Assembly (NCBI GenBank): GCA_050749465.1
Contig: JBOGRO010000017.1
Coordinates: forward strand, 1,191 to 65,190
Source: Thermoplasmata archaeon
GTDB lineage: Archaea; Thermoplasmatota; Thermoplasmata; Lutacidiplasmatales; UBA184
Length of the DNA: 64,000 nucleotides
Reading direction: 5' to 3'
Position numbers and translations under genes: made by a program. The notes beneath the pieces were generated by a model, which worked only from the letters and a program-made list of their open reading frames with translations, did no database searches and was not told where the DNA came from. Of the stretch, positions 1,088-59,996 are shown piece after piece (positions within the stretch are counted from its first letter, which is position 1; each line of letters begins with the position of its first letter).

Positions 1088-1089
1088 GG

Positions 1090-1626: not shown

Positions 1627-1627
1627 C

Positions 1628-2503: not shown

Positions 2504-3027
2504 CGTTCTTCCCCCGTGCGTAAGGGTGGCACGGCGAAGGGGTCCGTTCGATATCAGTCTTCCGAGCCCCGGTGAACCAGACGGTACCCGTGCCGGCGGA
2601 GTGGGGGAGTGCGCCACCGCGAAGCGAGAGGTAGGCCGACAGCCCAAATTCGACGCGCGCCCCGCCGTACCGGCCCTTCGGTTCCCCCCTCGGGCCGTGG
2701 GGGGCGACGAGGAACGAGCTCGCGCACTTCCGAGAGAGAGCGACCTACGGAGAATCGCGCGTCGGGCGGACTCCCGGCGAGAGGGTCACCGACCGGAGGG
2801 AAGTGGAACGCACCAGGTCGGACGCGCGCTCCGTGTTCGAGGGGGTCCACCGGCTCCGGGGGGTTCCCCGGCGCAATGGTGAGGATGGGATCCCCCGTGG
2901 GTCGACGGCCGGCCGCGGGAGGGACCGGCGAGCGATCCCACCAGTCCGGGCGGATCCGGCCCTCCGCGGGGAGCGCGCACCCCGCCCAGGACAGTCAGTG
3001 CGGGTGGGCGCCTCGACCCCGAAAGGG

Positions 3028-3033
3028 TAGATA
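3028..3033 (+). promoter_or_regulatory. TATA-like box (TAGATA) 25-30 nt upstream of the xdhC ATG
   Basis: An AT-rich hexamer in an otherwise GC-rich spacer. The spacing matches the other leaderless promoters in this window. Confidence 0.35.
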
Positions 3034-3057
3034 CCGTCGACCGGATGACAATCCCCC

Positions 3058-3891: not shown

Positions 3892-3965
3892 CCGGAGCCG
3901 GGTTCCGCGGCGTGGGAACCCCGACGTCCGGTGGGGGCCGCTCGAGAATCCGAGGATCAGGGCCC

Positions 3966-4943: not shown

Positions 4944-5000
4944 GGACTTGCCTCGCGGGGGCCCACCGGGGCCCTCCCCGCGGCGGTAGTATCGACGGGA

Positions 5001-5009
5001 AATATATAC
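5001..5009 (-). promoter_or_regulatory. TATA box (AATATATAC / GTATATATT) upstream of moaA
   Basis: One of the strongest AT-rich elements in the window. It lies about 60 nt upstream of the preferred moaA GTG start. Confidence 0.5.
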
Positions 5010-5124
5010 TCGCACCGGCGGGATCGGCGCCGAACCCGCTGGCCGCGCTCGAACGAACGGTCGGAGAAACGTTCATTCGACCCCGGCGGGTGGGGACCCG
5101 GTCGGGTGCCCCCGAGGTCTCGAT

Positions 5125-6018
5125 ATGGAAGAACGCGTCACCGCTCCGTGGTCGTCGCCCGCGGAGGTCGAACAGCTCCTGAGGGGGCAGGGGTACCTCC
5201 CCGACCCCGCCCTCGTCACCGCGGTCTACCTCAGCGGGAGGCTCGGCAAGCCCCTCTTGGTCGAAGGGGAACCCGGTTGCGGGAAGACCGAGCTCGCGAA
5301 AGCACTCGCGGGGGCGACCGGTGGCGAGCTCATTCGGCTACAATGCTTCGAGGGGCTCGACGCCCGCTCCGCGCTCTACGACTGGGACTATCCCCGGCAG
5401 CTCCTGACGATCCGTCTGCACGAAAGAGGCGAGTCCATCGAGACCGTGGAGAAGGAGGTCTTCAGCGAGCGGTTCCTCTTGCGTCGTCCCCTCCTCCGCG
5501 CCCTCGATGGCATCGGTCCCCATCGACCGGTCCTCCTGATCGACGAGGTCGACCGGGCCGACGAGGAGTTCGAGGGGTTGCTCCTCGAGGTCCTCTCGGA
5601 CTTCCAGGTCACGGTTCCCGAGCTGGGCACGATCCGGGCGAAGCGGATCCCGCACGTGGTCATCACTTCCAACCGGACGCGCGACCTCAGTGACGCGCTG
5701 AAGCGTCGGTGCCTCTACGCGTACGTGGAGTACCCCGAGCTCGAGAAGGAGGTCGCGATCCTCGCGGAGCGCGTCCCGGCTCTCGGCGCGACGTTCGCGC
5801 GCCAGATCGCGGCCTTCGCCCAACGGATCCGTCAGGAGCCCGAGCTCGCGAAGCGGCCGGGCGTCTCCGAGACGATCGACTGGGCGGCGGCGCTGCTCGC
5901 CCTCGGCCGGACGGGTCTCGACGCGGCGACGATCGCGTCGACCCTCGGTTTCCTCGTGAAGGACGCGCAGGACCTGCGGTACCTGCGGGAGCAGCGGCTC
6001 GCGGCGCTCACGGAGTAG
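5125..6018 (+). CDS. coxD: CoxD-like MoxR-class AAA+ ATPase
   Basis: Walker A is GEPGCGKT and Walker B is LLIDEVDR, followed by an AAA lid domain. It is followed directly by a VWA gene in a cox context. A GAGGT Shine-Dalgarno-like sequence sits 7 nt upstream of the ATG. Confidence 0.9.
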   Translation: MEERVTAPWSSPAEVEQLLRGQGYLPDPALVTAVYLSGRLGKPLLVEGEPGCGKTELAKALAGATGGELIRLQCFEGLDARSALYDWDYPRQLLTIRLHERGESIETVEKEVFSERFLLRRPLLRALDGIGPHRPVLLIDEVDRADEEFEGLLLEVLSDFQVTVPELGTIRAKRIPHVVITSNRTRDLSDALKRRCLYAYVEYPELEKEVAILAERVPALGATFARQIAAFAQRIRQEPELAKRPGVSETIDWAAALLALGRTGLDAATIASTLGFLVKDAQDLRYLREQRLAALTE

Positions 6019-6022
6019 TCGC

Positions 6023-7159
6023 GTGGTCGATCGCGGCGAGGACGTCGCGGCCATTCTGCGGAGCCGGATCTCCGGCTTCTGCGAGATCCTGCGACGGAGG
6101 GGGTGTCCGGCCGGCATCGGGGCCGAGGTCGATCTCGCTCGGGCTATGGACGCGATCGACCTGACCGACCGACTTCGATTCCGGGCGGCTTGCGGAGCGA
6201 CGTTGGCTCGCTCGCCCGAGGAGCTCCGGACGGTCTACGCCGCGTTCGACGCGTACTGGGACCCCGCTCCGCCGAGGGGCGAGCTCCCCGCGCCGGGGGC
6301 CGAGAGCGCTTCGCTCGCTCCCCGGCGGGAGCGCCCCGAAGCTCCCGGCGCCGACCGGGACGGTGCGACCGAGCTCGAGCGGCCCCCGGTCGTGATCCCG
6401 ATCGGAACCTACAGTCGCGCGGCGCCTCCCTCCCCTCGCTCCCCGCCACCGCTCGGCGAGCGCGAGCTCCGTAGGATCCGCCACGGGGTCCGCCGTTTCC
6501 GCCGTGACCTCGCGGCCGTGCCCGGACGACGTCGGGGCCCTTCCCGACGGGGGGCGGTCGACCTGCGGGACACGGTCCGCCAGAGCCTGCGTTACGGCGG
6601 AGAGTGGGTCGAACTCCGCCGGGAGCGCCCGCGCCGAACGCGCGCGGAGTTCGTCGTCCTGTGGGACGTCAGCGGTTCGATGCGCGAGCACGAGAGCCGC
6701 TTCTTCGCGCTGGTGCATGCGCTCCAGTCGGCCTCCCGCCCCAGCCGGGTCTTCGCGTTCTCCACCCGGGTCGAGGAGATCACCTCCGAGGTCCGGCGGA
6801 ACCGGTACCGACGGGCGACCGTCGCCGTCGGCCGGCGGATCGGACGGGCCGACGGCGGGACACGGATTGCCCGGTCGCTCCGGGAGTTCGACGCTCGGTA
6901 CGGCGCGTCGTTGGGGGGCCGCTCCTCCCTCGTGGTCCTCAGCGACGGGTGGGACCTCGGCGAAGCGGAGCGGGTACGCGACCCCCTCGAGCGCCTGCAC
7001 CGGCGGGCGAACCGGGTGGTCTGGGTCACGCCGTACACTCGGCGACCCGGTTTCGAGCCGCGCGTCGGGGCCTTGCGTGCGGCCCTCGGCGAGGTCGACC
7101 TTCTGCTCGGCCCGGAAGACTTCGAGTCCCGCTGGCCGCTCCCACCGTATCGCTACTGA
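6023..7159 (+). CDS. coxE: CoxE-like VWA-domain protein
   Basis: The C-terminal VWA domain has a MIDAS-like motif (VVLWDVSGSM ... VVLSDGWD). The GTG start is 4 nt after the coxD stop. A CoxD/CoxE pair is typical of Mo-enzyme maturation. Confidence 0.85.
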   Translation: MVDRGEDVAAILRSRISGFCEILRRRGCPAGIGAEVDLARAMDAIDLTDRLRFRAACGATLARSPEELRTVYAAFDAYWDPAPPRGELPAPGAESASLAPRRERPEAPGADRDGATELERPPVVIPIGTYSRAAPPSPRSPPPLGERELRRIRHGVRRFRRDLAAVPGRRRGPSRRGAVDLRDTVRQSLRYGGEWVELRRERPRRTRAEFVVLWDVSGSMREHESRFFALVHALQSASRPSRVFAFSTRVEEITSEVRRNRYRRATVAVGRRIGRADGGTRIARSLREFDARYGASLGGRSSLVVLSDGWDLGEAERVRDPLERLHRRANRVVWVTPYTRRPGFEPRVGALRAALGEVDLLLGPEDFESRWPLPPYRY

Positions 7160-7223
7160 GCACCCACCACGCCCGGAACTTTCTGGACTCGAGCGCGCTC
7201 CCGCGGAGACGAGGTCGGGCTCG

Positions 7224-7730
7224 AACCACGACGTCGCGATCGTCGGGGCCGGGATCGTCGGGTGCGCCGGCTCGATGGAGCTCGCCCGACGAGGAAAGTC
7301 GGTGATCGCGCTGGAGGCCGTGGACGGTACGAGCGACACCCGCTGCCGGGCGAGGGGCCACGTCGGCGAGCGCGACGACAACGAGGCCCCGATCTCTCTC
7401 ACGCGTTTCGGCCGAGCTCACTCGAACGAGATCGTTCCGGACCTTCCGCCCGACGTCGACCGGATTCCGATCGAGCGGACCCGGGCGGGACCGCGGCCCG
7501 CGGGCGCGGACGCGGTGCCGTTCCTCGGACCTGTCCCCGGTCGGCCCTACGTCCTGGTCGCCGCGGCCCACGAGGGAGTCGGGGTCATGACCTCGCTCGC
7601 GACCGGCCTCTGGATCGCCGAGCAGATGGAAGGACGCGCTCCGTCGATCCCCCTCGAGCCGTACCGGCCAGAGCGAGTCGGTCCGACTCCGGGGCGCGAT
7701 CCGGCGCCCGGCGGAACGCCCTCGGGGTGA
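7224..7730 (+). pseudogene. FAD-dependent oxidoreductase (DAO family) remnant, internally deleted and without a start codon
   Basis: The Rossmann N-terminus HDVAIVGAGIVGCAGSMELARRGKSVIALE joins after about 60 aa to the family C-terminus PFLGPVPGRPYVLVAAAHEGVGVMTSLATGLWIAEQM. That gives about 168 aa, versus about 370 aa for intact members. There is no ATG, GTG or TTG between the coxE stop (7157-7159) and the GxGxxG motif. Confidence 0.6.
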
Positions 7731-7734
7731 GGCC

Positions 7735-7740
7735 TTTAAT
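7735..7740 (+). promoter_or_regulatory. TATA-like box (TTTAAT) 24-29 nt upstream of the nitrilase-family ATG (leaderless)
   Basis: An AT hexamer in a GC-rich spacer, at the spacing typical of archaeal leaderless promoters. Confidence 0.45.
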
Positions 7741-7763
7741 CCCTCGGCGCGTGCCCGACGGAG

Positions 7764-8612
7764 ATGCGGATCGCCCTCGTTCAGTTCACGCCCCAATTCC
7801 CGGGCCACGACCACAACTGGGCCCGGATGCGCGAGTGGGCCGAGACGCTGGACGCCGAAGTGATCGTCTTCCCCGAGCTCGCCTCGTCCGGGTATTCGTA
7901 CCGGGACGCGGAGGCGTTCCGACCGTACACGGACACCCGGGACATCCTCGATCCGCTCGAGCACCTCGCGCGCAGCCGCGACCGACTCTTCGTCGGGGGG
8001 TTCGCGGAACGTGACGGGGACCGGATCTACAACAGTGTCTTCGCGATCTCCCCGTCCGGCACCCACGTGTACCGGAAGATGCACCTCTGGGCGAACGAGA
8101 AGCTCCTCTTCCAATCCGGAGATCGGCCGCGACAGGTAGAGTTCCGGGGCCATCGCTTCGGGATCGAGGTCTGCTACGACCTCCAGTTCCCCGAACTCGC
8201 CGCCTACTACTCGCGCGCCGGTGCGGAGGCGATCCTCGTCCCGACGGCGTGGGGCGTGGAGGACGTCGGCCCGAACGGGGGCCTCCGCTCGTACACCCAT
8301 CTCGCGATCGCCGTGGCCTATTCGCACGGGATCTACGCTGCGGTCGTGAACCGGACCGGCACGGAGGCCGAATCGGAGTTCCCGGGTCAATCCAGCCTCG
8401 TCGACCCGTACGGTCGGGTCCAGTACCTTGGGGCAGCGGAAGAGGTCCTCCGCGGTGAACTCGATTTCTCGCTCGTGGCCAAGGCGAAGCGACCGTCGGA
8501 CCTCAACGACCTCGACCGGGACGCGCGCCTCTCGATCCACTTCCCCGAGTCCGACCGGGAGCCGTCGAACGCCATGGCCGGACCGGTGCGGGCATCGCGG
8601 TACGTGGCCTAG
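7764..8612 (+). CDS. Carbon-nitrogen hydrolase (nitrilase superfamily)
   Basis: The Glu-Lys-Cys triad is present in context: VIVFPELAS, YRKMHLW, IEVCYDLQFPE. Confidence 0.88.
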   Translation: MRIALVQFTPQFPGHDHNWARMREWAETLDAEVIVFPELASSGYSYRDAEAFRPYTDTRDILDPLEHLARSRDRLFVGGFAERDGDRIYNSVFAISPSGTHVYRKMHLWANEKLLFQSGDRPRQVEFRGHRFGIEVCYDLQFPELAAYYSRAGAEAILVPTAWGVEDVGPNGGLRSYTHLAIAVAYSHGIYAAVVNRTGTEAESEFPGQSSLVDPYGRVQYLGAAEEVLRGELDFSLVAKAKRPSDLNDLDRDARLSIHFPESDREPSNAMAGPVRASRYVA

Positions 8613-8685
8613 GGCGGGTCTCGGGGACCCGTAGCCCGATCCGGGCCGTACACCGAGGGGAAATAAGAGGCGTGCCTGCGCGGGC

Positions 8686-13832: not shown

Positions 13833-16800
13833 ATGGTAGGGCCGGAGGTCACAGTCCTCCGCACCGGTGAGTTCAAGGGGACCCGCCTCGCCCGATCGGA
13901 GGTCTCCACCGACCGCTTTGCCGCCACCGGGTGCCCGCCGGCGCGGGGGTCCGTGCCGAGGTGCTTCGCGCGGAAGGAGACGCTGCCGGCGACGCGGGCG
14001 CTCGCCGACATTACCGACCGGAGAGGCACGCTCTGGGACCGGTTCTCGGTCCGGATCACTCCGACGGTCGTGGCGTTCCGCGACGGGGAGGACGTCGCCC
14101 GGATCGAGCCGAATCACGCCTCGGTGAACGCTCCGCGACGGGCTCCGCGACGACCGAATCCGACATCAAGGTCCCGGGTTTGGGCGGGAGCGACCATGCT
14201 GGTCGCAGCCTTTCTGGGCACGGAGGACGGCCCGCGTCGGCGGGCGCCCCGCATGGCCCCACCCCGAGCCGGGCCTCGGCGCGCCCAGAAACCCCCCTTG
14301 CCGGCGATGGGGTGGGTCCTCATCGTCGGCGTCGCCTGCCTGATGGCGATCCCCTCGATCACAATCGGCGCGTCCGCCCCTCGAGCGCCCGCTCCCCGAT
14401 CCGAGGCCGGAGGAACGGCGAACGTTCCCTCGTTGCCTTCCGCCGCCCCTTCCGCGGTCCCGTCGCTCGGACCGCTCGCGTACTCGCTGAGTCACGCGAT
14501 GAGCTGGGTAGCGCTGCCGCCGGCCGCCCCGGTCACCGTGCAGGGCGCCGGGTTTGCGGCGCTTTCCTCGAACTCGGAGGGAGTCCTCTTCGGGGGGAGC
14601 AACGTGTCCGGCCTCCAGGATGGGTCCTACCTCTACAGCGAGACCTCCAACCAGTGGACGGACCTCGCCCCGGCTACGTCGCCCTCCGCGCGCACCGGCT
14701 TCGCGTTCGCGACCGACGCCGCGAGCAGCACCGCGGTGCTGTTCGGGGGAGAGGTCAACTCCGGGTCGGGCACTACGACGAACGACACGTGGCTCTTCTC
14801 GTTCTCCGCGGGATCCTGGACGAACGTCTCTCGCGCGGTCGCCCCCGATGCGCGACAGGACCCCGCCTTCGCGGTCGGGGACGGGATCGCACTCCTCTAC
14901 GGCGGCTCTTCCACGGCGTCGGGCGGGACCGGTACGACGACGTACTCGGACACCTGGTCGCTCGACCTCGCGACCAACGTCTGGACGCGGATTCTTCCGA
15001 CCGGTGGGGTCCTCCCGGGCCCGCTCCACGGCGCTTCCCTCGTCTGGCAGCCGAGCCGGAACGCGTTCCTGCTGTTCGGAGGCTGTTACCCGTGCTCGAA
15101 CGCGCTGTGGGCCTTCACCCCTTCCAACGACACCTGGACGGCGGTGAGCGGGTACGGGGAGGTTCCGACCGTCCGGATGGAAGCGGTCTGGGTCTGGGAC
15201 CCGGCCCAGGCGGTCGACCTCCTCTTCGGCGGCACGAACGGGACCGGCGCCCTCAATGACACGTACCTCTACTCGCCCGGAGAGGGACTCTGGACCCGCG
15301 CCCTCGGTTCGCCGACCCCGTCTCCTCGTTACGGCGCGGCCGCCGACTTCTTCGACGTCGCCGGCAACGACACGCTGCTCCTCGCCGGTGGCGGCAACGG
15401 AACCACGATCGATGCCGACTCCTGGCGGCTCGCCGCGACCGCGAATCTGACGGTCGAGGTCACGAACGCCTCCACCGGTTACGCGGTGTCGGGCGCGAGC
15501 GTCGCGGTGGGCCCCTCGCTCGTCCTCGCCACGAACAGCTCGGGAGGCGCGAGCGTCTCCGCCCTGACGGCTCAGGAGACGTCGGTCACCGTCTCGCAGC
15601 CCGGTTATCTGTCGCAGTCCCAAACGCTCTGGCTCGCACCCGGGTTGACCACGACGCTCGACTTCCCGTTGGATTGGGTGTTCCCGGCCCAGGTCCGGCT
15701 CTACGTTCGGACCGCGCTCGGCGCGCCGGTCGCCGGGGCGTTCGTCAATCTGACGGACGGTCGCCACCTCCTGCCGGGCTCCCCGCACGTCACGAACGGC
15801 ACCGGGTTCACGGAGTTCCTCGGCGTCCCGGCCGCGAACGGTTCGGTGACCGCCATGGCGACCGGCTTCCACGAGAACACTACGGCCGCGGACTTCGCCT
15901 CCAGTCAGGTGACGTGGGCGAACATCACGCTCATCCCGCTGCTTTCGCTCACCGTTCGGACCCTCGGGAAGCTTCCGAACGGCACGACCGCCACCCTACA
16001 GAACGTGCAGATCGACGTCGGGGGTCTACCGGTCGGTCGTAGTGGGCCGGGAGGATGGTTCAACACGACGGTCGACGCGACCGGGGTCGTCTCGATCTCG
16101 GCCGGCGCGTACGGCTACAAGAACCTCTCGCAGACGTTCCTCGCGCCGCTCTCGGGCGTGAAGCAGCTCAACCTCACCCTGACGGCCTACCCGTTCCCGT
16201 CGGTGACCGTCGAAGTGATCGGCCGTTCGTCCGGTTCGATCCAGGTCCTCCTCCGGAACGCGTCCGTGAACGTCACGAGCGACCAGGTCCTGCCGACCGG
16301 CCGCTACTTCGGGAACTTCTCCACGGGGATCCACGGCACCGTCGACTTCTCCCCGCCGCCCGGGAACTTCACGATCGACGCCTCCTCACCGGGGTACCTC
16401 GAGAACAACTCGGGTCCCGTGCTCAACGCGACCTCGGGGGCCCAGCTCGTCCGGACGATCTACCTGACCCCGATCGAGCTCGCGACCCTCGACGTCCGCG
16501 TCGTGAGCGCCGTCGGCGGAAATCCCCCGATCGTCGGCGCGGCGATCGCGCTCAACATCTCGGGGCTGAACCTCACGAACGGGCTGCCGTTCCCGATCGT
16601 GCACGGAGCGACCGGGACGAACGGGTGGGCGAACTTCTCGAACGTCCCCGGCACGTCGATCGTGATCATCGCCTCCGCGGCCGGTTACTCCACGAACAGC
16701 ACCGGTCTCGCGCTCTCCCCGAACCAGCGGACCGCGGTCGCGGTCGTCTACCTCCACCCGCTGCCGCTGCCGACGTACGAGGGGCTGCGGATCCTCCCGA

Positions 16801-16985
16801 CGGCGTCGGCCGACCTCTGGGTCCTCGCGCTCCTCCCGCTCGCCGCCCTCGCGGGGGTCCTCGTCTACCTCACGATGCTGCGCGCGCCGTCCTACCGGGA
16901 CGAACGCGGGGACGAGTCGCCGCCAGCGGGAGCGTCGAAATCGGCCCCAACGAAGCCCGAGGTCCCCCAGGCCGGGTCGCCGTAG
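13833..16985 (+). CDS. Large membrane-anchored surface protein: thioredoxin-like N-module, TM helix, Kelch-type beta-propeller, several CarboxypepD_reg/PEGA-like Ig domains, C-terminal TM anchor
   Basis: Repeated Kelch blades are visible (..VLFGG....NDTW.. / ..LLYGG...YSDTW.. / ..LLFGG..NDTY..). There are about 30 N-x-S/T sequons. A hydrophobic helix WVLIVGVACLMAIPSITIGA sits after a basic stretch, and the C-terminal helix is LWVLALLPLAALAGVLVYL. Alternative starts at ATG 14196, 14253 or 14307 would remove the Trx-like module. Confidence 0.75.
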   Translation: MVGPEVTVLRTGEFKGTRLARSEVSTDRFAATGCPPARGSVPRCFARKETLPATRALADITDRRGTLWDRFSVRITPTVVAFRDGEDVARIEPNHASVNAPRRAPRRPNPTSRSRVWAGATMLVAAFLGTEDGPRRRAPRMAPPRAGPRRAQKPPLPAMGWVLIVGVACLMAIPSITIGASAPRAPAPRSEAGGTANVPSLPSAAPSAVPSLGPLAYSLSHAMSWVALPPAAPVTVQGAGFAALSSNSEGVLFGGSNVSGLQDGSYLYSETSNQWTDLAPATSPSARTGFAFATDAASSTAVLFGGEVNSGSGTTTNDTWLFSFSAGSWTNVSRAVAPDARQDPAFAVGDGIALLYGGSSTASGGTGTTTYSDTWSLDLATNVWTRILPTGGVLPGPLHGASLVWQPSRNAFLLFGGCYPCSNALWAFTPSNDTWTAVSGYGEVPTVRMEAVWVWDPAQAVDLLFGGTNGTGALNDTYLYSPGEGLWTRALGSPTPSPRYGAAADFFDVAGNDTLLLAGGGNGTTIDADSWRLAATANLTVEVTNASTGYAVSGASVAVGPSLVLATNSSGGASVSALTAQETSVTVSQPGYLSQSQTLWLAPGLTTTLDFPLDWVFPAQVRLYVRTALGAPVAGAFVNLTDGRHLLPGSPHVTNGTGFTEFLGVPAANGSVTAMATGFHENTTAADFASSQVTWANITLIPLLSLTVRTLGKLPNGTTATLQNVQIDVGGLPVGRSGPGGWFNTTVDATGVVSISAGAYGYKNLSQTFLAPLSGVKQLNLTLTAYPFPSVTVEVIGRSSGSIQVLLRNASVNVTSDQVLPTGRYFGNFSTGIHGTVDFSPPPGNFTIDASSPGYLENNSGPVLNATSGAQLVRTIYLTPIELATLDVRVVSAVGGNPPIVGAAIALNISGLNLTNGLPFPIVHGATGTNGWANFSNVPGTSIVIIASAAGYSTNSTGLALSPNQRTAVAVVYLHPLPLPTYEGLRILPTASADLWVLALLPLAALAGVLVYLTMLRAPSYRDERGDESPPAGASKSAPTKPEVPQAGSP

Positions 16986-28288: not shown

Positions 28289-29263
28289 CTACATCGTGGG
28301 AGTTCCAAGGCCCTCGATCCGATTCTCTCCGTACTCGCGAAGCTCATCGTATGCCCAGATCCGCTGATACCCCTCGGCCACCAGACCCCCGGGCGATCGC
28401 GAGACCACATTCTCCCCGAACTTCCGCTTCATCGCCGAGAAGATCCCTTCTGTCCCGGGCCACCGCATACCCTACTGGTTCTGAGCCGCCCACGCCTCGT
28501 AGCCCAGCGCCTGATACGCCCGCACCGCCCTCCGCCGGTACTTGTTCGAATGCCGAGGGCTATGCCGGTGGCTCGCGCTCGCTCCCTTCCGAATCTGGAT
28601 CACGGGCTCTGTGCCCGTGCTGTGGAGGGCCCCGAACATGTCGTGGGTATCGTACGCCCCATCCCCGTAGAACTTCCGGACCCGGTACCCTCCCTGGGCG
28701 GCCGCCTGAACATGGACGGCTGCCGTCTGGGACTCCGAGTGCCCCTTCCCCTCGATGTAGACCTCGATCCCGATCACCTTCTTCCGTTTCACCTCGGCCG
28801 TGATCACCACGACGAGGTGCTTGCGTTGCTTCGCGTCGGGGTCCTCGTATCGAAAGATCCGGTACTCCCCGGCGTTGGAGGTCTTCCGGCCGGTGCCGTC
28901 CGAGGCCAGCTCGAGGTCCAAGTACTTGGGCATCTTCAGGGCCGGGGTCAGACCGTGGAGGCGGTGCCAGAGGGTCGTGTAGTCGGGGTAGGTGGGGATC
29001 CGGCCGAGCTGGGCCATCCGACGCGTGATCCCCTCCAAACCCCGGTAGTCGATGAGCTGCTTCCAGATGACGAGCCACCGGACGAACGACTCCGGGATGC
29101 GGTACTGCCCACCCCGCTTGCCCCGGTTCATGGTGGCGAGTTCCGGGTCCCAGGTCCGCAAGGGACCGAGGTCGAGGTAGAACTCGCCTCGGACAACGAG
29201 GGAGTCATTGTAGGTGGGCCAGTCTCGGTGGTCTCGGTAGGGTTTCCCCCAGCGGGCGGACAT
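28289..29263 (-). pseudogene. IS5-family DDE transposase interrupted by an in-frame TAG
   Basis: ORF 28472..29263 reads WPTYNDSLVVRGEFYLDL...GKRGGQYRIPESF...YRGLEG...YGDGAYD. Hand translation past the TAG (28472-28474), in the same frame, gives GMRWPGTEGIFSAMKRKFGENVVSRSP...YDELREYG, ending at TAG 28289-28291. Confidence 0.75.
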
Positions 29264-30207: not shown

Positions 30208-33200
30208 TCATGCGTCGACCGAAGTCGGGACCGCCGCCGTGTCGGGGGACCCCGATGCCGGCGCGAGGGTTGCCGACGGGGCAGCGGGAGTCGGCCGAGG
30301 TTTCCGGCCACTGAGGCTCCAGACGCGGTCCCCGAGCAGCTGCAGCGACGCGGGCACGAGGTACGTCCGCACGACCATCGCGTCGAGGAGCACCGCGACG
30401 GCGACGGAGAAGCCGATCGCCCGGATGAGCGTGAACTCCCCGACGAGGAGGGCGCCGAACGCGCTCGCGAGGATCACCGCCGCGGCCGTGATGATCCCGC
30501 CGGTCCGGGCGACCGCCTCGACGGCCGCCTCGCCCGACGAGCGACCCCGCACGCGCTCTTCCCGGACCCGGGTCAAGAGGAAGATGTTGTAGTCGATCCC
30601 AAGGCCCAGGACGAGGATGAACAGGATCGTCCGGACGTAGAAGAAAAGCGGGAAACCGAGCAGCTCCTGGAAGACGAGGTAGGTGACCGCCCACGCCCAC
30701 CCGATCGAGATCCCGATCGTCCCGATCGCCAGCAGTGCGATGATCCACGAGCGCAGGACGACCAAGAGGACCAGGGCGAGGCCGATCGCGACCGCGAGGA
30801 CAAGGTACTCGGTCGCGGTCGCCGTCTCGTTCGCGAGGTCGTTGATCGTCGGGGCGCCGCCGCCGAAGGCGAGCTGGGTGACCTCGGCGTGGCCGGCGGC
30901 GTACCCCGAGAAGGAATGCTCGACCGACTGGAGCGCGTTGACCGCCCCGACCGAAAGACCGCTCGCGGACGGCTGGAGCGACAGAAGGACGGTCCGGCCG
31001 TCCGTCCCGACATACGCGGAAAGGGTTCCGAGCAGGTTGGCCTGCGTCGCGGACGGCAGCGTCGCGAGGCTGAGCCACTGGGAGAGGGACGCCCCGCCCG
31101 GCCCGACGGGTGACGAGACCGCCTGGATCCCGGGCGTCGCGTTCGCGAGCGTCGTTAACGCGGCGAGGTCCGTGAACTCGGTCGAGTTCGTCACGGTGCC
31201 GACGACGAGCGGGGACGCGAACGTGACGAGCGCGAACGACGGCACGGCGAAGCCGGGACCGAAGTGCGCTCCGAGCTCGTTCAGCGCGTCGGTCGCGGGG
31301 TGTCCGCTCGGCAGTTGGGCGTAGAAGTCGTAGGAAAGGGGGACCTGGACGGCGAGGAGGAGCAGCGGTACCGAGATGAGCAGGATCACCCCGACCGTGA
31401 TGCCGGGCCGACGTTGCGTCGCCCGCCCGACCCGGTAGAAGTACGTCCGTTCGGTGCGGTTCCGCTCGCGGACGGTCTCGGCACGACGTCGGAACCGTTC
31501 GCCGGTCGTCGGCCAGAAGATCCGCGGGCCGATGAGCGCGAGGCAGGCCGGGACCATCGTGAGCGAGACGAGGACGGTGATCAGGATCGCGAGCGAGAGG
31601 ACCGCCCCCCACTGCGCGAGGAGCGCGACCCCGCTGAACGTCAGCGCGAGCGTCGCGATGATCGCGGTCGAGCCGCTGGTCGCGACCGACTGGCCCGCCC
31701 AGGACAGGGAGGCGACGATGGCGTCGTGCGAGCTCTTCCCGCCGACGAGCTCTTCGCGGTAGCGGGCGACCATGAAGATCGAGTAGTCGGTCCCGACGCC
31801 GAGGACGAACACCTCCTCGAGCGTCAGCGCGGTCGAGTCGACGTGCTCGATCAGCTCCCCGATCAGGACGGTCCCGCCGATGCCGAGACCGAGCGCGATC
31901 CCGAGGATCCCGAAGGTCACGAGCGGCGTCATCGGGGATCGGAAGTAGATCATCGAGATCACGATCAGCAGCCCGACCGTCAGCGGAAGGACGAGGGCGA
32001 TGGACGAGCTCACCGCGGTCTGGGTCAGGAGGTCGAGCGGCGCGGCGCCGGTCTGGACGTAGGAGATCGTGTGGGTCTGGTCGAGTCCGTCGACGAGGGG
32101 CGGAACGAGCGCGTCGATCCGACCGAGGTCCGCGTAGACGGGGTCCGCGCCGCTGGCGTTCGTCGAGCCGTCCGGGACCGTGAACTCGACCTGGACGATC
32201 TGGGCGGTGCCCGAGGCGTCGACGTACTGGGTGTAGACCGCCGGTGGCACGGGCAGCGGTTCGTCGGCCAAGGTCGAAGCCGCGACGAGCCCGTTGGCCC
32301 AGGCGGTCAGCGCGGCGGGGGTCGCGGTCCCCGACGGGAACGCCTGCCCGACGCGCAAGACCCACGCGCCGGGCAAGCCGGACTCGGTGCCGAGCGCGAT
32401 CGCGGTCGTGGCCTGCACGCTCGGCCAGGCGGTCGCGTTCTCGACCCCGAGGGTTGCCAGGACCGCGCGGGGGACGACGCGATCGGCGGTGATGGGGAAG
32501 AGGAGGGGGACGAGACCCGACTCGGTCGCGCGTGCCGTCCCGTCGGAGCACGGGACGACGCTCGCGGGGTCGGTCCAGCACCCGGCGGAGCGGTTGAATC
32601 CGGGCGCCGAGGCGTTGCCGTTGTAGAACGCGCCGAGGACGGTCGCCGCGGGCGTCCCGTTACCGACCTCGGAGAGCGCCCGTTCGTAGGCCGGGAAGTT
32701 CGCCGTCGCGGCCGAGGTTCCGTTCGCGACGAGCGCGTTCCAGGCGCCGAGGAACGCGGTCGGCGGCCCCCAGAGGAGCGCCGACGAGTCGTTGACGGCG
32801 ACCGGCGCCGAGGGGGTGCTGGCGAGTCCCGCCGCGACGACCCCGGCCGCCAGTTGCGCCTGCCCCGCGAGGTAGCCCGCGTACGCGGAGTAGACCGTCC
32901 CGACCGCCCCCAGGTTCGCGAGCGCTCGATCGGTCTCGAGCGCGGTGGATACGGCGAGGACGACCCCCTGCGCGTTCGCGTCGGTCATGTTCGGACCGAC
33001 CAAGAGGATCGTGCTCGCCGACCCGCCGGTCGTATTCGGGAAGAGCCGGGCGAGCTCTGCGCTCGCGAGGGCGCTCGGCGAATTCGCGGGAGTCGAGTCC
33101 TCCGAGTTCGTCGTCACCGAGCCGAGCAGCGAGAGGAACGGCGCCGAGATGAGCAGCAGGACGACCCAGAAGACGATCGGGTACCACGGATGGCGGACGA

Positions 33201-33291
33201 TCCAGCGCGCCATCCGCCCGAGGATCGGGGTCCGTGGGGGGTCCGTCGGCGGGGCCGAGACCATCGTCGGGCTCGACCGGCCCCCTCCCAT
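30208..33291 (-). CDS. MMPL-family (RND superfamily) membrane transporter with large extracytoplasmic domains
   Basis: Two 6-TM MMPL bundles are present (...GVGTDYSIFMVARYREE... and ...GLGIDYNIFLLTRVREE...), each preceded by a large loop. GC3 is high from ATG 33291. An alternative start lies at 33213. Confidence 0.85.
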   Translation of the reverse strand: MGGGRSSPTMVSAPPTDPPRTPILGRMARWIVRHPWYPIVFWVVLLLISAPFLSLLGSVTTNSEDSTPANSPSALASAELARLFPNTTGGSASTILLVGPNMTDANAQGVVLAVSTALETDRALANLGAVGTVYSAYAGYLAGQAQLAAGVVAAGLASTPSAPVAVNDSSALLWGPPTAFLGAWNALVANGTSAATANFPAYERALSEVGNGTPAATVLGAFYNGNASAPGFNRSAGCWTDPASVVPCSDGTARATESGLVPLLFPITADRVVPRAVLATLGVENATAWPSVQATTAIALGTESGLPGAWVLRVGQAFPSGTATPAALTAWANGLVAASTLADEPLPVPPAVYTQYVDASGTAQIVQVEFTVPDGSTNASGADPVYADLGRIDALVPPLVDGLDQTHTISYVQTGAAPLDLLTQTAVSSSIALVLPLTVGLLIVISMIYFRSPMTPLVTFGILGIALGLGIGGTVLIGELIEHVDSTALTLEEVFVLGVGTDYSIFMVARYREELVGGKSSHDAIVASLSWAGQSVATSGSTAIIATLALTFSGVALLAQWGAVLSLAILITVLVSLTMVPACLALIGPRIFWPTTGERFRRRAETVRERNRTERTYFYRVGRATQRRPGITVGVILLISVPLLLLAVQVPLSYDFYAQLPSGHPATDALNELGAHFGPGFAVPSFALVTFASPLVVGTVTNSTEFTDLAALTTLANATPGIQAVSSPVGPGGASLSQWLSLATLPSATQANLLGTLSAYVGTDGRTVLLSLQPSASGLSVGAVNALQSVEHSFSGYAAGHAEVTQLAFGGGAPTINDLANETATATEYLVLAVAIGLALVLLVVLRSWIIALLAIGTIGISIGWAWAVTYLVFQELLGFPLFFYVRTILFILVLGLGIDYNIFLLTRVREERVRGRSSGEAAVEAVARTGGIITAAAVILASAFGALLVGEFTLIRAIGFSVAVAVLLDAMVVRTYLVPASLQLLGDRVWSLSGRKPRPTPAAPSATLAPASGSPDTAAVPTSVDA

Positions 33292-55642: not shown

Positions 55643-56428
55643 CTACAAAACGGTCCGGAACGCCCGCTCGAGCCGGCTCAGCTCGCGCGTGTCGAGCGAG
55701 CGTCGGTCGAACGAGACGACGAGCGCGGAGCCGGTCTGCTCGACCTGCCCGACGAGCCAGTTGACGAACTTGAGCGTCAGTTCGAGACCGTACTCCCCGG
55801 TGAGGTACTCGAGCGCGTCCACGTAGACGAGCGCACCGCCGGGCGCCTCGGTCGGCTCGCGGAGATGACCGCCGACCTCCCCGGGCGAAAGCGGGCCGCC
55901 GGCGGGGACGCCGCTCCCATTCGGAACGATGTCCGTGCGTCGATCCTTCGAGAGGCCGGGGAGCTCGGGGGGATGGAGCGAGACGATCGCCGCGCGGGGG
56001 AACTCGTGGACGTTCGCGCGCACGAGCTCGACCCCGCGCGCGGGCCGCTCCTCGCGGACGAGGAGGCTCCGACCGGGGCGGAGTCGGTTCGCGGCGACGC
56101 TCTCGGTGCCGAACGGGGCCGCCCACGGTCGCGCCGGTTGCGGCGCGCGGAGCAGTGAGTTCCACGCGGGGCGGCGGGGGGGGCCTAGCAGGCTCCGTCG
56201 CTTGAGCTCGACCTCCTCGTCGAGGCGCGCGAGTCGGCTCTCGACCAGGATCCGCAGCTCCTGCGCGGTGTGACCGCGCGACGTGTGCTGCAGGACCTCG
56301 CGGAGGCCGCTGCGGACCCCTTCCTCGTAGCCGGCGGCGTAGGTCCGGGCGAACTCCTCATCCGCCGGCGGTTCCGCGTCCGCGGGCGGCGGGGGGGACG
56401 GGCCGTTCCGCCGTTCGGGAGCGCTCAC
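55643..56428 (-). CDS. DUF835-domain protein, translationally coupled to the DUF35 gene
   Basis: The GTG at 56428 is in a GTGA overlap with the DUF35 stop. The C-terminal DUF835 region reads GRSLLVREERP...ALVYVDALEYLTGEYGLELTLKFVNWLVGQVEQTGSALVVSFDRRSLDTRELSRLERAF. Confidence 0.75.
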   Translation of the reverse strand: MSAPERRNGPSPPPPADAEPPADEEFARTYAAGYEEGVRSGLREVLQHTSRGHTAQELRILVESRLARLDEEVELKRRSLLGPPRRPAWNSLLRAPQPARPWAAPFGTESVAANRLRPGRSLLVREERPARGVELVRANVHEFPRAAIVSLHPPELPGLSKDRRTDIVPNGSGVPAGGPLSPGEVGGHLREPTEAPGGALVYVDALEYLTGEYGLELTLKFVNWLVGQVEQTGSALVVSFDRRSLDTRELSRLERAFRTVL

Positions 56429-56913
56429 GCGGACGCCCGGTCGCTCTCCGTCGCGGACGTCGCTCGGACGGCGGCGGCCGGCCGGCCCGGGGGCCGGAGC
56501 GGCGTGTCCTCGGTGGGAGCGAACTTGTAGCCGTAGTGGATGACGCCCGCCTTCCCCTCCTCCCGGAGCTTGCGGAACGTCGCGTGGACCTTCAGCCCGA
56601 TCCGGACCTCGGACGGGTCGAGGTCGACGACCTGGCCGGTCAGCGTGGGTCCCTCGACCGTCCGGACGAGCGCGAGGATGTACGGGACCTGCATCTCGAA
56701 CCCCTCCGCCGCTTCGTGGACGACCGTGAACGAGAAGACCTCGCCGTCCCCCGAGAGCTGGAACGGGACCATCTTCTCGATCGACTCGCGGTGGTGGGCG
56801 CACGTCGGGCAGACGGAGCGGGGTGGGAAGTACGCCGTGCCGCACATCGTGCAACGCGACCCGCCGAGGTTGTATCGGCGCGGGGTCTCGCGCCAGAACC
56901 GTGCGATCGACAT
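56425..56913 (-). CDS. DUF35 Zn-ribbon/OB-fold protein (scaffold of the archaeal thiolase/HMG-CoA synthase complex)
   Basis: The sequence reads RFWRETPRRYNLGGSRCTMCGTAYFPPRSVCPTC...FSFTVVH...VPYILALV...GVIHYGYKFAP. Confidence 0.9.
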   Translation of the reverse strand: MSIARFWRETPRRYNLGGSRCTMCGTAYFPPRSVCPTCAHHRESIEKMVPFQLSGDGEVFSFTVVHEAAEGFEMQVPYILALVRTVEGPTLTGQVVDLDPSEVRIGLKVHATFRKLREEGKAGVIHYGYKFAPTEDTPLRPPGRPAAAVRATSATESDRASA

Positions 56914-56922
56914 CGGTCCCTC

Positions 56923-58092
56923 CTACGCCGCCCGCTCGAGGAGCGTGACGACGCTGGTCGCGCCGGTGCCGCCCACGTCGTGGGCGAGGGCGAACGAAGC
57001 GTTGGCGACCTGTCGGTCCTTCGCCTCGCCGCGGAGCTGGCGGACGAGCTCAACCACCTGCGCGACGCCGACCGCGCCGAACGGGCGGCCCTGCGCCTTG
57101 AGGCCGCCGGACATGTTCACGGGAATGTCGCCGGACGGGCCGAAGCGGCCCGCCTCGAAATCGGGCCCGGCCCGGCCCTTCTCCGAGAAGCCGAGGTCCT
57201 CGAGCGCCACCAGCGCCGAGATCGTGTAGGCGTCGTTGATCTCCGCGACGTCGACGTCGGCCGGGGCGCGGCGCGCCCGCTCGAAGGCGCGGCGCGCGGC
57301 GACCGCGGTCGACTCGAGCGTCGTGATGTCCTGCCGGTGCTGGACGGCCATCGTGTCGCACGCGACCTGGCTCGCCGCGATGCGAATCGGGGTGTCGGTG
57401 TAGCGGCGAGCGACCTCGAGTGGCCCGAGGACCACGGCCGCCGCGCCGTCCGAGAGCGGGGCGCAGTCGAAGACCCCGAGCGGTTCGGCGACCGGCCCCG
57501 CGCCGATCACCTGCTCGAGCGTGATGCGGTTGCGGTAGTGGGCATTCGGGTTCTTCGTGCCCATCTCGTGGGCGTGGACGGCGACCCGCGCGAGCTGCTC
57601 GCGCGTCGTGCCGTACTGGTGCATGTGGCGCCGCGCGATGAGCGCCCAGAGCGCGGGCAAGGTCGCGCCGAAGACGACCTCCCACTCGTGGTCGGCGGCG
57701 GCGCTCGTGATCTGGTTGCCAGTGACGTCCGGTACATCGGTCAACTTCTCGGCCCCGCCGACGACGACGAAGTCGTAGAGTCCGCTCGCGACCGCAAGAT
57801 ATCCCTGGTGGAGCGCGAGCGAGCCCGAGGCACCGCCGCCCTCCACGCGGACCGCGGGGAGGTGACGGCCGCCGAGTCCGGCATAGTCGAGGATCAACGG
57901 ACCGATGTGCTCCTGGTCGATCAGCGAGCCCGACGCCATGTTGCCGAGGAAAAGCGCGCCGAGATCGGCGGACGAGAGCTTCGCGTTGACGAGCGCCTGG
58001 AGGCCGGCCTCGATCCCGATCTCGCGGAACGAACGGTCCCACAGTTCGCCGAACTTCGTCATGCCGACGCCGAGGACCGCGACGTCGCGCAC
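56923..58092 (-). CDS. Thiolase-like protein (archaeal SCP2-type acetyl-CoA acetyltransferase homolog) lacking the catalytic Cys/His/Cys residues
   Basis: Similarity to archaeal thiolases is strong over the full length (MRDVAVLGVGMTKFGELWDRSF..., GGAEKLTDV, DCAPLSDGAAAVVL, HDVGGTGA). The three active-site motifs, however, read VEGGGASG, NDAY and GRPFGAVG. Confidence 0.85.
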   Translation of the reverse strand: MRDVAVLGVGMTKFGELWDRSFREIGIEAGLQALVNAKLSSADLGALFLGNMASGSLIDQEHIGPLILDYAGLGGRHLPAVRVEGGGASGSLALHQGYLAVASGLYDFVVVGGAEKLTDVPDVTGNQITSAAADHEWEVVFGATLPALWALIARRHMHQYGTTREQLARVAVHAHEMGTKNPNAHYRNRITLEQVIGAGPVAEPLGVFDCAPLSDGAAAVVLGPLEVARRYTDTPIRIAASQVACDTMAVQHRQDITTLESTAVAARRAFERARRAPADVDVAEINDAYTISALVALEDLGFSEKGRAGPDFEAGRFGPSGDIPVNMSGGLKAQGRPFGAVGVAQVVELVRQLRGEAKDRQVANASFALAHDVGGTGATSVVTLLERAA

Positions 58093-58094: not shown

Positions 58095-59147
58095 TCAGCT
58101 CCCTCCCATGTGGATCTTGCCGCGGTACTTCGCGTAGACCCCGTAGGAGAGCTCGATCCCGCTATCGAGGTACGACTGCACGGATCGTCCGAACGAGTGG
58201 TCGTACCGCGCGATCTCGTCGGTCGTCGTGAGGTCGAAAGCGTCCGAGCCCGCGCCCGAGCCGTATCCGACCATGAGGATCCGCTCATCGGGCCCCGCGT
58301 GGTCCAGCACGTTCGCGAGACCGAGGAGCGCCGCCGCCGAGTAGGTGTTGCCGATGTACGGGGTCACCAGGCCGTAGCGCATCTGCGCCTCGGAAAAGCC
58401 GAGCTGCTTCCCCACCCGCTGCGGGAACTTTCCGTTCGGCTGGTGGAAGACGACGTGACGGTAGTCCTTCGGCTCGGTCCCGCTCGCTTCCATGATCCGG
58501 TGCGCGCACTCCGTCTCGTGTCGGAAGTAGGCGGGCTCGCCGGTGAACCGGCCGCTGTGGCTCGGGTACCGCTGGCCCTCGCGCCGCCAGAAGTCGGGCG
58601 TATCGGTCGTGTAGGAGACCGTCCGATCGACCCGCGCGATGACGTGCTCGCGCCCGATGACGAACGCGGCGCCGCCCGCGCTCGCGGAGTACTCGAGCGC
58701 GTCGCCGGGCGCCCCCTGAGAGGTGTCGGTTCCGATCGCGACGCCGTAGCGGACCATCTCCGACCCCACGAGGCCGAGGCACGTCTGGATCGCGGCGGTC
58801 CCCGCTTTACAGGCGAACTCGAAGTCGGCGGCGGTGAGGTTGGGCGTCGCGCCGACCGCCTGGGCGACGACCGTCGCCGTCGGCTTCACGGCGTAGGGAT
58901 GCGACTCGGAGCCGACGTAGATCGCGCCGATCTGCTGGGGATCGATCGCGCCGCGGACGAGCGCGACGCGCAGTGCCTCGGTCGAGATCGTGATCGTGTC
59001 CTCGTCCGGCGCCGGGACGCTCTTGCGGTGGACGTTCAGACCCTGCCCCATGCTCTCCCCGTCCGAGCCCCAGACCCGACCGATCTCGACCGGGGTGATG
59101 CGGTAGCGGGGGACATACGCGCCGTAGCTCACGATTCCTGCGTCCAT
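58095..59147 (-). CDS. Hydroxymethylglutaryl-CoA synthase (archaeal type)
   Basis: The sequence starts [17 protein letters not shown]... The catalytic Glu (GSESHPY), Cys (FEFACKAGT) and His ([11 protein letters not shown]) are present, as is GNTYSAA. Confidence 0.92.
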
Positions 59148-59162: not shown

Positions 59163-59840
59163 TTACAGTTCCTCGAGCCGCTCGAGCACCGCGGGCGCGG
59201 CGAGCGACGTCGTGAGGAGGGGGATGTTCTCGACCTCGGAGAGTCGGATCGCGAGCGGGTCGACCCGGCCCGGGTTCGCAAAGACGACGGCCGCGGGCTT
59301 GAGCGGATGGGCCCGGATCGCGACCATCGGCGAGCGGCCGTACTTGACGTTCGAGAAGATCAGCGCGCGCTGGGTCGTCCAGCCGTAGACCTCCACGAAG
59401 TGCGACGCGTCGATCGAGAGGATCGCGCGGGGCGCGTCAAGTATCGTGAACCCGTGGATGTCGCGGTGGAGGTCCACGCGGCTCATCGCGCGCGCCTCGA
59501 GCCGGTCGGCGAACGACTTCAGTGGGATCGCGACCGCGAACTCGCGCATCCCGAGGATGCCGTCGGAGTGCGCGTGGACCCCGAGGCGCTGGCCGACCTT
59601 CCCGCCGTGGTCGGCGTCGACCGCGAGGAGGGCGTCGACGTAGCGGCGGATGAACCCGGCGCCGGGGCTGACCCGCCGCTCCGACTCGTAGTCGCTGACC
59701 ACGGACGGGACGGTCTGCAGATGCTTTGCGAGGTCGCGCTGGGAGATGCCGAAATCTTCCCGCCACTTGCGAAGCGTACGCCCCGGGTGGGGGGAGAGGA
59801 CGACCTCTCCGGCCATCTTCTCTCGGATCTCCGCTTCCAC
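59163..59840 (-). CDS. XRE-family HTH transcriptional regulator with a C-terminal domain, first gene of the mevalonate operon
   Basis: The HTH_3 segment reads LRKWREDFGISQRDLAKHLQTVPSVVSDYESERR. I prefer the GTG at 59840, which lies 23-29 nt downstream of the TATA box at 59863-59869. The track ORF start at 59903 would place the TATA box inside the CDS. Confidence 0.8.
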   Translation of the reverse strand: MEAEIREKMAGEVVLSPHPGRTLRKWREDFGISQRDLAKHLQTVPSVVSDYESERRVSPGAGFIRRYVDALLAVDADHGGKVGQRLGVHAHSDGILGMREFAVAIPLKSFADRLEARAMSRVDLHRDIHGFTILDAPRAILSIDASHFVEVYGWTTQRALIFSNVKYGRSPMVAIRAHPLKPAAVVFANPGRVDPLAIRLSEVENIPLLTTSLAAPAVLERLEEL

Positions 59841-59862
59841 GGGCCCGCGAGACGGACCGCGG

Positions 59863-59869
59863 TATAAAT
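59863..59869 (-). promoter_or_regulatory. TATA box (ATTTATA on the minus strand) for the regulator-HMGCS-thiolase-DUF35-DUF835 operon
   Basis: The sequence TATAAAT is at 59863-59869. An in-frame GTG lies 23-29 nt downstream, which implies a leaderless transcript. Confidence 0.5.
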
Positions 59870-59996
59870 CGCTAACCTTCCTGTCGGTCGTGGGTCTCGA
59901 CAAGTGCCGATGGCCGACGCCGGTTATCGAGGGAGTGGACCGGGCGAGACTCTCCGGGGCGGGACGCGGGCCCGCCCCCTTTGAACTCGCGACCTC

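Follow-up and report, generated by a model that had tools for sequence, protein, structure and literature searches.

The window analysed here is a stretch of 64,000 nucleotides from contig JBOGRO010000017.1 of a Thermoplasmata archaeon, which belongs to the order UBA184 (Candidatus Lutacidiplasmatales). The reverse strand of the window carries a compact mevalonate-entry operon of three genes, which encode an HMG-CoA synthase (HMGCS), a thiolase-like protein and a DUF35 protein (Table 1). The thiolase-like gene starts with GTG at 2 nt downstream of the HMGCS stop codon, and the DUF35 gene starts with ATG at 9 nt downstream of the thiolase-like stop codon. The thiolase-like protein is composed of the Pfam domains Thiolase_N and Thiolase_C_1, and HMGCS of ACP_syn_III_C and HMG_CoA_synt_N; the DUF35 protein contains zf-ChsH2 and OB_ChsH2_C only, and is free-standing with no hydratase fusion. 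An earlier note on this DNA, made from the letters alone, had described the thiolase-like gene as full length with a high GC content at third codon positions (GC3). This description holds, as the 389-residue frame has GC values of 0.75, 0.48 and 0.91 at codon positions 1, 2 and 3, respectively, in a window of ~71% GC. The order as a whole has a GC content of ~69% and a genome size of ~2.1 Mb (PMC9287336).

Table 1. The operon in the window, the altered motifs of its thiolase-like protein, and related loci with Cys-less thiolases (residue states of the related loci in the order 85/284/286/336)
Feature	Positions	Strand	Description
XRE/HTH_3-type regulator gene	59163..59903	-	246 aa; Pfam HTH_31, HTH_3, HTH_19
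HMG-CoA synthase (HMGCS) gene	58095..59147	-	Archaeal type, 350 aa; catalytic residues intact
Thiolase-like gene	56923..58092	-	389 aa; thiolase-fold pseudoenzyme, probable orthologue of complex thiolase
Nucleophile codons GGC GGC GGT (Gly85-Gly86-Gly87)	57832..57840	-	Gly87 at the position of 6ESQ_A Cys85
NDAY replacing HDCF	57226..57237	-	His to Asn, acid/base Cys to Ala, Phe to Tyr
GRP replacing GHP	57082..57090	-	Oxyanion-hole His336 to Arg
DUF35 gene	56425..56913	-	162 aa; scaffold protein, zinc ribbon and OB fold
L081, Thermoplasmata, 40% GC			Ser/His/Ala/His; HMGCS-thiolase-DUF35
L084			Asp/His/Cys/His; HMGCS-thiolase, no DUF35 match on the 5.2-kb contig
L085, 70% GC			Asp at 85; partial HMGCS (contig end)-thiolase-DUF35
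L086, Thermoplasmatota			Ser/His/Ser/Asn; HMGCS-thiolase-DUF35
L087, Thermoplasmata			Ala/His/Ser/Asn; HMGCS-thiolase-DUF35
L088, Heimdallarchaeaceae (Asgard)	5998-8613		Asn/His/Ser/Asp; HMGCS-thiolase-DUF35

Similarity search using phmmer revealed that the top PDB match of the thiolase-like protein is 6ESQ_A, the thiolase of the Methanothermococcus thermolithotrophicus complex, with 47% identity over residues 1-385 (E = 5e-106). The alignment is free of gaps around every motif. In the nucleophile region, RVEAACASG of 6ESQ_A is aligned to RVEGGGASG of the window protein, which replaces Cys85 by Gly; in the acid/base loop, AEVHDCF is aligned to AEINDAY, with His284 changed to Asn, Cys286 to Ala and Phe287 to Tyr; and in the oxyanion-hole region, KAAGHALGA is aligned to KAQGRPFGA, with His336 changed to Arg. 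Direct reading of the DNA gives the same residues: gtg gag ggc ggc ggt gcc tcg ggc encodes VEGGGASG, atc aac gac gcc tac encodes INDAY (codon of Asn286 at 57237-57235), and cag ggc cgc ccg encodes QGRP (codon of Arg336 at 57087-57085). The claim of the earlier note that all three hallmark motifs are altered is thus borne out, as is its manual decoding of GGC GGC GGT at 57832-57840; the catalytic positions are occupied by Gly, Asn and Ala, and Arg, with neither Cys nor His among them. The protein scores 496.6 bits against the equivalog NF053570 (AcCoTHIOL_METTL), under the cutoff of 600, and passes the generic subfamily model NF004720 with 498 bits (cutoff 420). Its structure predicted by AlphaFold2 from a 100-sequence alignment has a predicted local distance difference test (pLDDT) score of 97.4, and could be superimposed onto 6ET9_C and 6ESQ_A with a template-modelling (TM) score of 0.96 and a root-mean-square deviation (RMSD) of 1.1-1.2 Å. 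In the operational sense the protein is a pseudoenzyme, which has lost the catalytic set and kept the fold, the length and the purifying selection.

When one genome per GTDB species was scanned, 410 genomes proved to have a relative, and the best 80 (76-93% identity) were analysed. These are metagenome-assembled genomes (MAGs) from soil, peat and sediment, and include Thermoplasmata archaeon UBA184 and Candidatus Lutacidiplasma silvani. The HMGCS-thiolase-DUF35 order is kept in 77 of the 80 loci, which confirms the conserved arrangement recognized in the earlier note, and the thiolase lacks the nucleophile Cys in all of them; 81/81 loci have an unbroken reading frame. None of the best 120 database clusters (82-93% identity, mostly named 'Thermoplasmata archaeon') has a nucleophile Cys either. 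Among these clusters, the nucleophile motif reads GGG in 105 and AGG in 12, the HDCF loop reads HDAY in 91 and NDAY in 16 in addition to minor forms, and the former oxyanion His is Arg in 101, Gln in 9, Cys in 7 and Ala in 2.

Comparison of 201 unique clade sequences from ~80 species-level genomes against 64 canonical relatives with the Cys/His/Cys/His set resolved the change position by position. The nucleophile position is Gly in 200/201 clade members, compared to Cys in 64/64 canonical relatives. In the HDCF loop of the clade, the His position is occupied by His (155), Asn (33) or Asp (13), the Cys position by Ala (178), Ser (13) or Gly (10), and the Phe position by Tyr (200) or Phe (1); the former oxyanion-hole position of the clade is Arg (180), Gln (12), Cys (7) or Ala (2). 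The Asn of NDAY in the window is therefore a minority form, and most of the clade keeps His at this position (155/201). Forty positions are conserved at ≥90% in the canonical relatives, or 38 after removal of the start codon and a gap column; 32 of the 38 are kept in the clade, in agreement with the similarity to archaeal thiolases outside the active site that had been noted before. The six changed positions, C85, H284, C286, F287, H336 and T341, include all four catalytic residues (hypergeometric p ~2e-4, 561/2,760,681). Three of the four ex-catalytic positions drift inside the clade (H/N/D, A/S/G and R/Q/C/A), which fits relaxed constraint there alone. By comparison of codons in 2286 genome pairs (Nei-Gojobori method), the ratio of nonsynonymous to synonymous substitution rates (dN/dS) is 0.19 for the thiolase-like gene, 0.14 for HMGCS and 0.23 for DUF35. 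The clade has fixed Gly87, Tyr289 and Val341. Its further specific and invariant residues, Gly86, His95, Leu145, Trp149, Ala211, Gln334 and Phe338, are mostly small or hydrophobic, and no new constellation of Cys, His, Asp, Glu or Lys was found among the clade-specific positions.

The two partners are intact, as the earlier note had stated for the Glu, Cys and His of HMGCS and the four Cys of DUF35. HMGCS matches 6ESQ_I with 470 bits and keeps the motifs GSESHPY, FACKAGT, FHQPNG and GNTYS; it scores 534 bits against the equivalog NF003274 (cutoff 244) and 514 bits against TIGR00748 (cutoff 353), and its residues Glu81, Cys113, His235 and Asn267 do not vary among 74 genomes. The DUF35 protein matches 6ESQ_E with 127 bits and has both CxxC pairs, whose four Cys show no variation among 75 genomes. 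It ends in a tail of ~28 residues (~135-162) rich in Pro, Ala, Ser and Thr, which is absent in the M. thermolithotrophicus protein, and the DUF35 proteins of the clade are 136-163 aa long. An open reading frame (ORF) of 403 aa (55643-56854) overlaps this region in a different frame, which leaves the true start of the DUF835-like gene downstream in doubt. Frameshifts split the DUF35 gene (L061:11181-11590) and the HMGCS gene (L070:8946-9994) in two MAG assemblies with long contigs; these most likely represent assembly indel errors and not pseudogenes. The apparent additional copies of DUF35 in L061 and of HMGCS in L070 are frameshift fragments, and were rejected as paralogues.

The catalytic loss is not peculiar to one genome; it is order-wide, and it is widespread and recurrent in archaeal HMGCS operons. 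Among representatives of clusters at 50% identity, a gap separates the clade (81% identity) from the next relatives (≤52%), many of which likewise lack the nucleophile Cys. Each Cys-less near-relative for which the genomic context was fetched lies in an HMGCS operon (Table 1), and the Heimdallarchaeaceae operon places the catalytic loss beyond Thermoplasmatota. A metagenome scan anchored on alignment to an HMGCS consensus, not on the thiolase, yielded 70 loci with a complete adjacent thiolase, 34 of them canonical and 36 without Cys85, a fraction that is no estimate for all Archaea because the consensus derives mostly from Cys-less lineages. The Cys-less states, in one-letter code and in the order of Table 1, are GHND (8), GHNQ (7), DHSH (3), SHNH (3), the Lutacidiplasmatales forms and others, at GC contents of 0.34-0.71. 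A neighbour-joining tree of HMGCS has one large clade that is entirely Cys-less, and at least 4-5 isolated Cys-less tips beside canonical neighbours, which indicates several independent losses; a Heimdallarchaeaceae locus is among the Cys-less ones.

Further analysis of these 70 operons revealed an all-or-none pattern in the loss of the catalytic set. Where Cys85 is present, C286, H336, F287 and T341 are present in 34/34; where it is absent, C286 is gone in 33/36 and H336 in 28/36. His284 persists in 34 of the 36 Cys-less proteins and Asp285 in all 36, in keeping with a role of these two residues in binding or structure. One Cys-less operon, on a 145-kb contig of a human-gut metagenome (L103, OROK01000039, 41% GC), encodes a Gly/His/Asn/Asp thiolase in the layout HTH-HMGCS-thiolase-DUF35. 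The HMGCS tree groups this locus with loci of 55-61% GC, and it has no diagnostic neighbour genes. An origin from Methanomassiliicoccales would fit; if so, the dead-thiolase phenomenon would be testable in cultured organisms.

Altogether, we consider it probable, at roughly 0.62, that the thiolase-like gene is an orthologue of the complex thiolase that has turned into a pseudoenzyme and is retained as a scaffold and CoA-site partner of HMGCS. The repeated inactivation, with the gene, its position, its framework and selection on it all retained, suggests that the pseudoenzyme is kept for HMGCS assembly and CoA binding, and the untouched rest of the conserved framework and the intact HMGCS point in the same direction. 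The earlier note had offered a scaffold or pseudoenzyme as one of two options, and this option is now favoured by the purifying selection, the tight translational coupling, the repeated loss with retention and the restriction of the loss to the catalytic set. With no acetyl-Cys intermediate and no deprotonation of acetyl-CoA, the thiolase-like subunit would make no acetoacetyl-CoA. HMGCS would still require it as a structural subunit, so that the gene would be kept and co-translated with HMGCS and DUF35. In the M. thermolithotrophicus complex, the subunits are described as interdependent, with HMGS alone inactive and ACAT alone insoluble (PMC12960953, citing Vogeli et al. 2018). The operon structure, the translational coupling and the co-conservation suggest that the thiolase-like protein assembles with HMGCS and DUF35; together with DUF35 it would build the dodecameric assembly, and it would supply half of the fused CoA-binding cleft that HMGCS uses for its CoA substrates. 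The intact HMGCS, with its Glu-Cys-His-Asn set, would still condense acetyl-CoA and acetoacetyl-CoA.

If the thiolase subunit is dead, acetoacetyl-CoA must come from the free pool, which could be fed by a separate bacterial-type thiolase or by the last 3-ketoacyl-CoA of beta-oxidation. The supply by another enzyme, which the earlier note had also called for, follows by logic from the loss. In beta-oxidation, acetoacetyl-CoA is the last 3-ketoacyl intermediate. Beta-oxidation genes are found in most Lutacidiplasmatales genomes (PMC9287336), which would be compatible with such an external source in this order. The Thermoplasmata locus L081, in which the operon thiolase carries Ser in place of the nucleophile Cys, has an intact bacterial-type thiolase of the AtoB/PhaA-like kind (5645-6811, reverse strand) divergent from the HMGCS operon, with the motifs NKVCGSG, NEAY, GHP and CLGGG and a score of 450 bits to TIGR01930; it is followed by a 3-hydroxyacyl-CoA dehydrogenase gene (4783-5628, reverse strand). 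This Cys-less lineage has a separate intact thiolase, which we count in favour of the pseudoenzyme. Relatives of the thiolase-like gene bear the JGI name acetyl-CoA C-acetyltransferase, so the 'atoB' calls by KEGG Orthology (KO) in PMC9287336 may partly represent the pseudoenzyme. The supplementary KO tables of the Lutacidiplasmatales paper give K00632 as 0 in the inferred ancestor.

Several points weigh against retention as an inactive HMGCS partner. The CoA-site step is carried over from the published description of the M. thermolithotrophicus complex, and would apply here by analogy. Tyr289 (200/201), Arg336 (90%) and ~10 more clade-specific invariant residues lie around the old pocket, which could be remodelled and functional instead of empty. 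As to the external source, tblastn detected no paralogue of the thiolase, HMGCS or DUF35 in the 64-kb window, and no Cys-containing thiolase within 10 kb of the operon in the 80 related genomes, with both archaeal-type and classic queries. Nor did searches with the L081 thiolase or with a synthetic GC-shifted consensus find a classic thiolase on a known Lutacidiplasmatales contig; the latter search recovered Nitrososphaerota. In the loci L089 and L090, the pair of thiolase and 3-hydroxyacyl-CoA dehydrogenase is located elsewhere and not beside the operon, which makes the adjacency in L081 lineage-specific. An operon-adjacent classic thiolase was accordingly rejected as a general rule, since it holds for the L081 lineage only. 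High-GC representatives of canonical thiolases, considered as candidates from Lutacidiplasmatales, were rejected as well, as they belong to Actinomycetota, Chloroflexota and haloarchaea.

A different reading is that the protein has been neofunctionalised, with a remodelled pocket that runs a Cys-independent acyl-CoA reaction and possibly feeds HMGCS; candidate reactions are a retro-aldol or lyase reaction as in Ltp2 or Sal, or malonyl-CoA decarboxylation, which is weakly seen in the Trypanosoma brucei protein TbSLP. Active members of the fold that lack the Cys do exist, and Ltp2 (6OK1), Sal (9MYR) and TbSLP (5AB4-7) match the predicted model with TM scores of 0.83-0.91. The clade-fixed residues Tyr289, Gly86/87, His95, Trp149, Gln334, Phe338 and Val341, together with Arg336 at 90%, would suit a new pocket, as would the persistence of His284 and Asp285 in nearly all Cys-less lineages. 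However, the clade-specific changes are mostly small or hydrophobic, and at equivalent sites the residues are unrelated from one Cys-less lineage to the next (G, S, D, A, N; D, Q, N, Y, F, R, H), which argues against a single new chemistry. The equivalents of Ltp2 Tyr294 and Tyr344 (286 and 336) vary within the clade as N/H/D and R/Q/C/A, and the catalytic Cys of Sal, the third residue of the motif, is Ala, Ser or Gly. Moreover, the genomic context is always the mevalonate-entry operon and never a catabolic cluster; in the window, the operon neighbours encode an HTH regulator, a DUF835-like protein and a GT4 glycosyltransferase, with no steroid or catabolic genes. We therefore regard neofunctionalisation as doubtful.

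The dead site might instead act as a regulator or sensor, which binds an acyl-CoA (acetoacetyl-CoA, HMG-CoA or free CoA) and allosterically gates HMGCS. The retained framework, which includes Asn181 and Lys13 along with His284 and Asp285, is in line with such binding, and the Cys-less relative TbSLP binds acetoacetyl-CoA and malonyl-CoA according to the titles of its PDB entries. A conserved helix-turn-helix (HTH) gene with the operon hints at a controlled entry into the pathway. In the window, 16 nt separate the end of the upstream HTH regulator gene from the HMGCS start, and this regulator gene is probably the first of the HMGCS cluster. A homologue lies immediately 5' of HMGCS in 75 of the 80 Lutacidiplasmatales loci, and one is found near the operon in 58/80 metagenomic HMGCS loci, mostly upstream among the loci inspected and downstream of DUF35 in several canonical lineages; the HTH protein may thus be a conserved regulator of mevalonate-pathway entry. 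Sequence alone cannot separate gating from the scaffold role. We hold a sensor role to be unlikely.

More speculatively, the dead-thiolase complexes might, in much of Thermoplasmatota and in some Asgard archaea, represent a thiolase-independent entry into the mevalonate pathway, in which the remodelled ex-thiolase pocket would not stand empty but present another C3 or C4 donor. As one option, Arg336 would hold malonyl-CoA across the fused CoA site for decarboxylative condensation with the acetylated HMGCS; as the alternative, the pocket would capture acetoacetyl-CoA from beta-oxidation. Either route, if true, would replace the endergonic Claisen step, overcoming which is the presumed purpose of the canonical complex. 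We rate this idea as improbable.

It is very improbable that the protein still works as a thiolase through another nucleophile or another Cys in the site. Cys210 and Cys245 are invariant in the clade, but Cys210 is no replacement, as canonical enzymes conserve it to the same degree. The protein lacks the nucleophile, the acid/base Cys and also the oxyanion His, the Gly at the nucleophile position has no side chain, and in sister lineages this position is Asp, Ser, Ala or Asn. A sequencing or assembly error or a decaying pseudogene is scarcely credible and stands refuted by the independent relatives and the dN/dS of 0.19, since the state is common to the 120 database clusters and the 80 species-level genomes from independent studies and technologies, with the frame intact in every locus and a GC3 of 0.91.

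The rest of the window contains several features of note. At 2-7159 lies a molybdenum hydroxylase cluster, which encodes the large and FAD subunits of the xanthine/CO-dehydrogenase family and XdhC, in addition to a MoaA-like radical SAM protein and CoxD-like AAA and CoxE-like VWA accessory proteins; this cluster is in line with the proposal that members of the order live as aerobic heterotrophs. A 1050-aa Kelch-repeat/CarboxypepD_reg protein (13833-16985, forward strand) is likely exposed on the cell surface. The GC content dips clearly at a single place in the window (0.66 compared to ~0.71), where a DDE transposase-like ORF is found (28472-29263, reverse strand); this is probably an insertion sequence. 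A 1027-aa transporter of the MMPL family is encoded at 30208-33291 on the reverse strand. MMPL proteins are lipid exporters in bacteria, and such a transporter in an archaeon with unusual lipid-precursor genes may merit attention.

The current rationale for the archaeal thiolase/HMGCS/DUF35 complex is that the unfavourable thiolase step is pulled by channelling of acetoacetyl-CoA to HMGCS. A soil-abundant order with an obligately retained dead thiolase subunit challenges the generality of this rationale, and the complex would need a second, non-catalytic reason, namely the dependence of HMGCS on its partner. The automated annotation 'acetyl-CoA C-acetyltransferase' is wrong for pathway reconstruction, and amounts to a systematic mis-annotation. 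The origin of acetoacetyl-CoA for the membrane lipids of these archaea becomes a directly testable question.

Comparison with other Cys-less members of the superfamily revealed partial likenesses. T. brucei SLP (5AB4-5AB7) and Sulfolobus tokodaii ST0096 (4YZO) both have a thiolase fold in which another residue replaces the nucleophile Cys, and both have been crystallised. In 4YZO, RVDNTSGSG is aligned to RVEGGGASG of the window protein, with Ser for Cys, and 4YZO keeps HD.. and GHP; TbSLP keeps the Cys of its YDCF motif, unlike the window protein. To our knowledge, neither is a subunit of an HMGCS complex. In type II polyketide synthases, the chain-length factor is a superfamily paralogue that lacks the active-site Cys and is the obligate partner of the active ketosynthase. 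It belongs to another branch of the superfamily, forms a single heterodimer with its paralogue, has no DUF35 bridge, and controls chain length.

The earlier note had cited the Ltp2-ChsH2(DUF35) retro-aldolase as a precedent, and this system and Sal-Shy(DUF35) (6OK1, 9MYR) do share an SCP2-thiolase fold that lacks the nucleophile Cys and has a DUF35 partner. As a mechanism, however, the precedent fails. Catalysis depends on Tyr294 (YDHF) and Tyr344 in Ltp2, and on Tyr302 and Cys304 (YDCY) in Sal (PMC12329534). The first of these Tyr positions is Asn in the window protein (H/N/D in the clade), the third motif residue is A/S/G, and position 336 (R/Q/C/A) lies 50 residues past the motif, like 294 to 344 in Ltp2 and 302 to 352 in Sal, an equivalence by spacing. 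Both catalytic Tyr are thus absent. The DUF35 of the window is free-standing, whereas theirs is a domain of a MaoC-type hydratase in a steroid or bile-acid catabolic cluster. Structurally, the model resembles Ltp2 (6OK1_A) with a TM score of 0.84 and an RMSD of 4.2 Å, compared to a TM score of 0.96 for the mevalonate-complex thiolase. An Ltp2/Sal-type retro-aldolase is made unlikely by the catalytic-Tyr positions, the free-standing DUF35 and the mevalonate-operon context.

Catalytically dead thiolases in archaeal HMGCS operons are not reported in the full-text literature searched, the coverage of which is incomplete, so that prior notice is possible. A preprint on archaeal fatty-acid synthase treats the ketothiolase/DUF35/HMGCS set as a conserved active module. 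The closest system is the M. thermolithotrophicus complex, and the window would encode that complex with a dead thiolase subunit. They both have three genes in the same order, with identical HMGCS catalytic residues and an identical DUF35 zinc ribbon; however, compared to M. thermolithotrophicus, the window thiolase lacks Cys85, Cys286 and His336, and also His284. The channelling across an endergonic step that is ascribed to the M. thermolithotrophicus complex would therefore not operate here. The tripartite bacterial complexes PhlABC (5M3K), MucABC (9VBO) and the ACAT/HMGS-DUF35 complex of Pseudomonas fluorescens (PMC12960953) likewise retain one dead thiolase-fold subunit, and the complex is still required for activity (PMC12960953). 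They present a mirror image of the window: the bacterial HMGS lacks the E-C-H-N tetrad and the ACAT keeps its Cys, whereas in the window the ACAT is dead and the HMGS intact. The bacterial complexes serve secondary metabolism, in contrast to the primary lipid biosynthesis of the window complex, and the two mirror images together provide a system for studying subunit loss and repurposing in multi-enzyme complexes.

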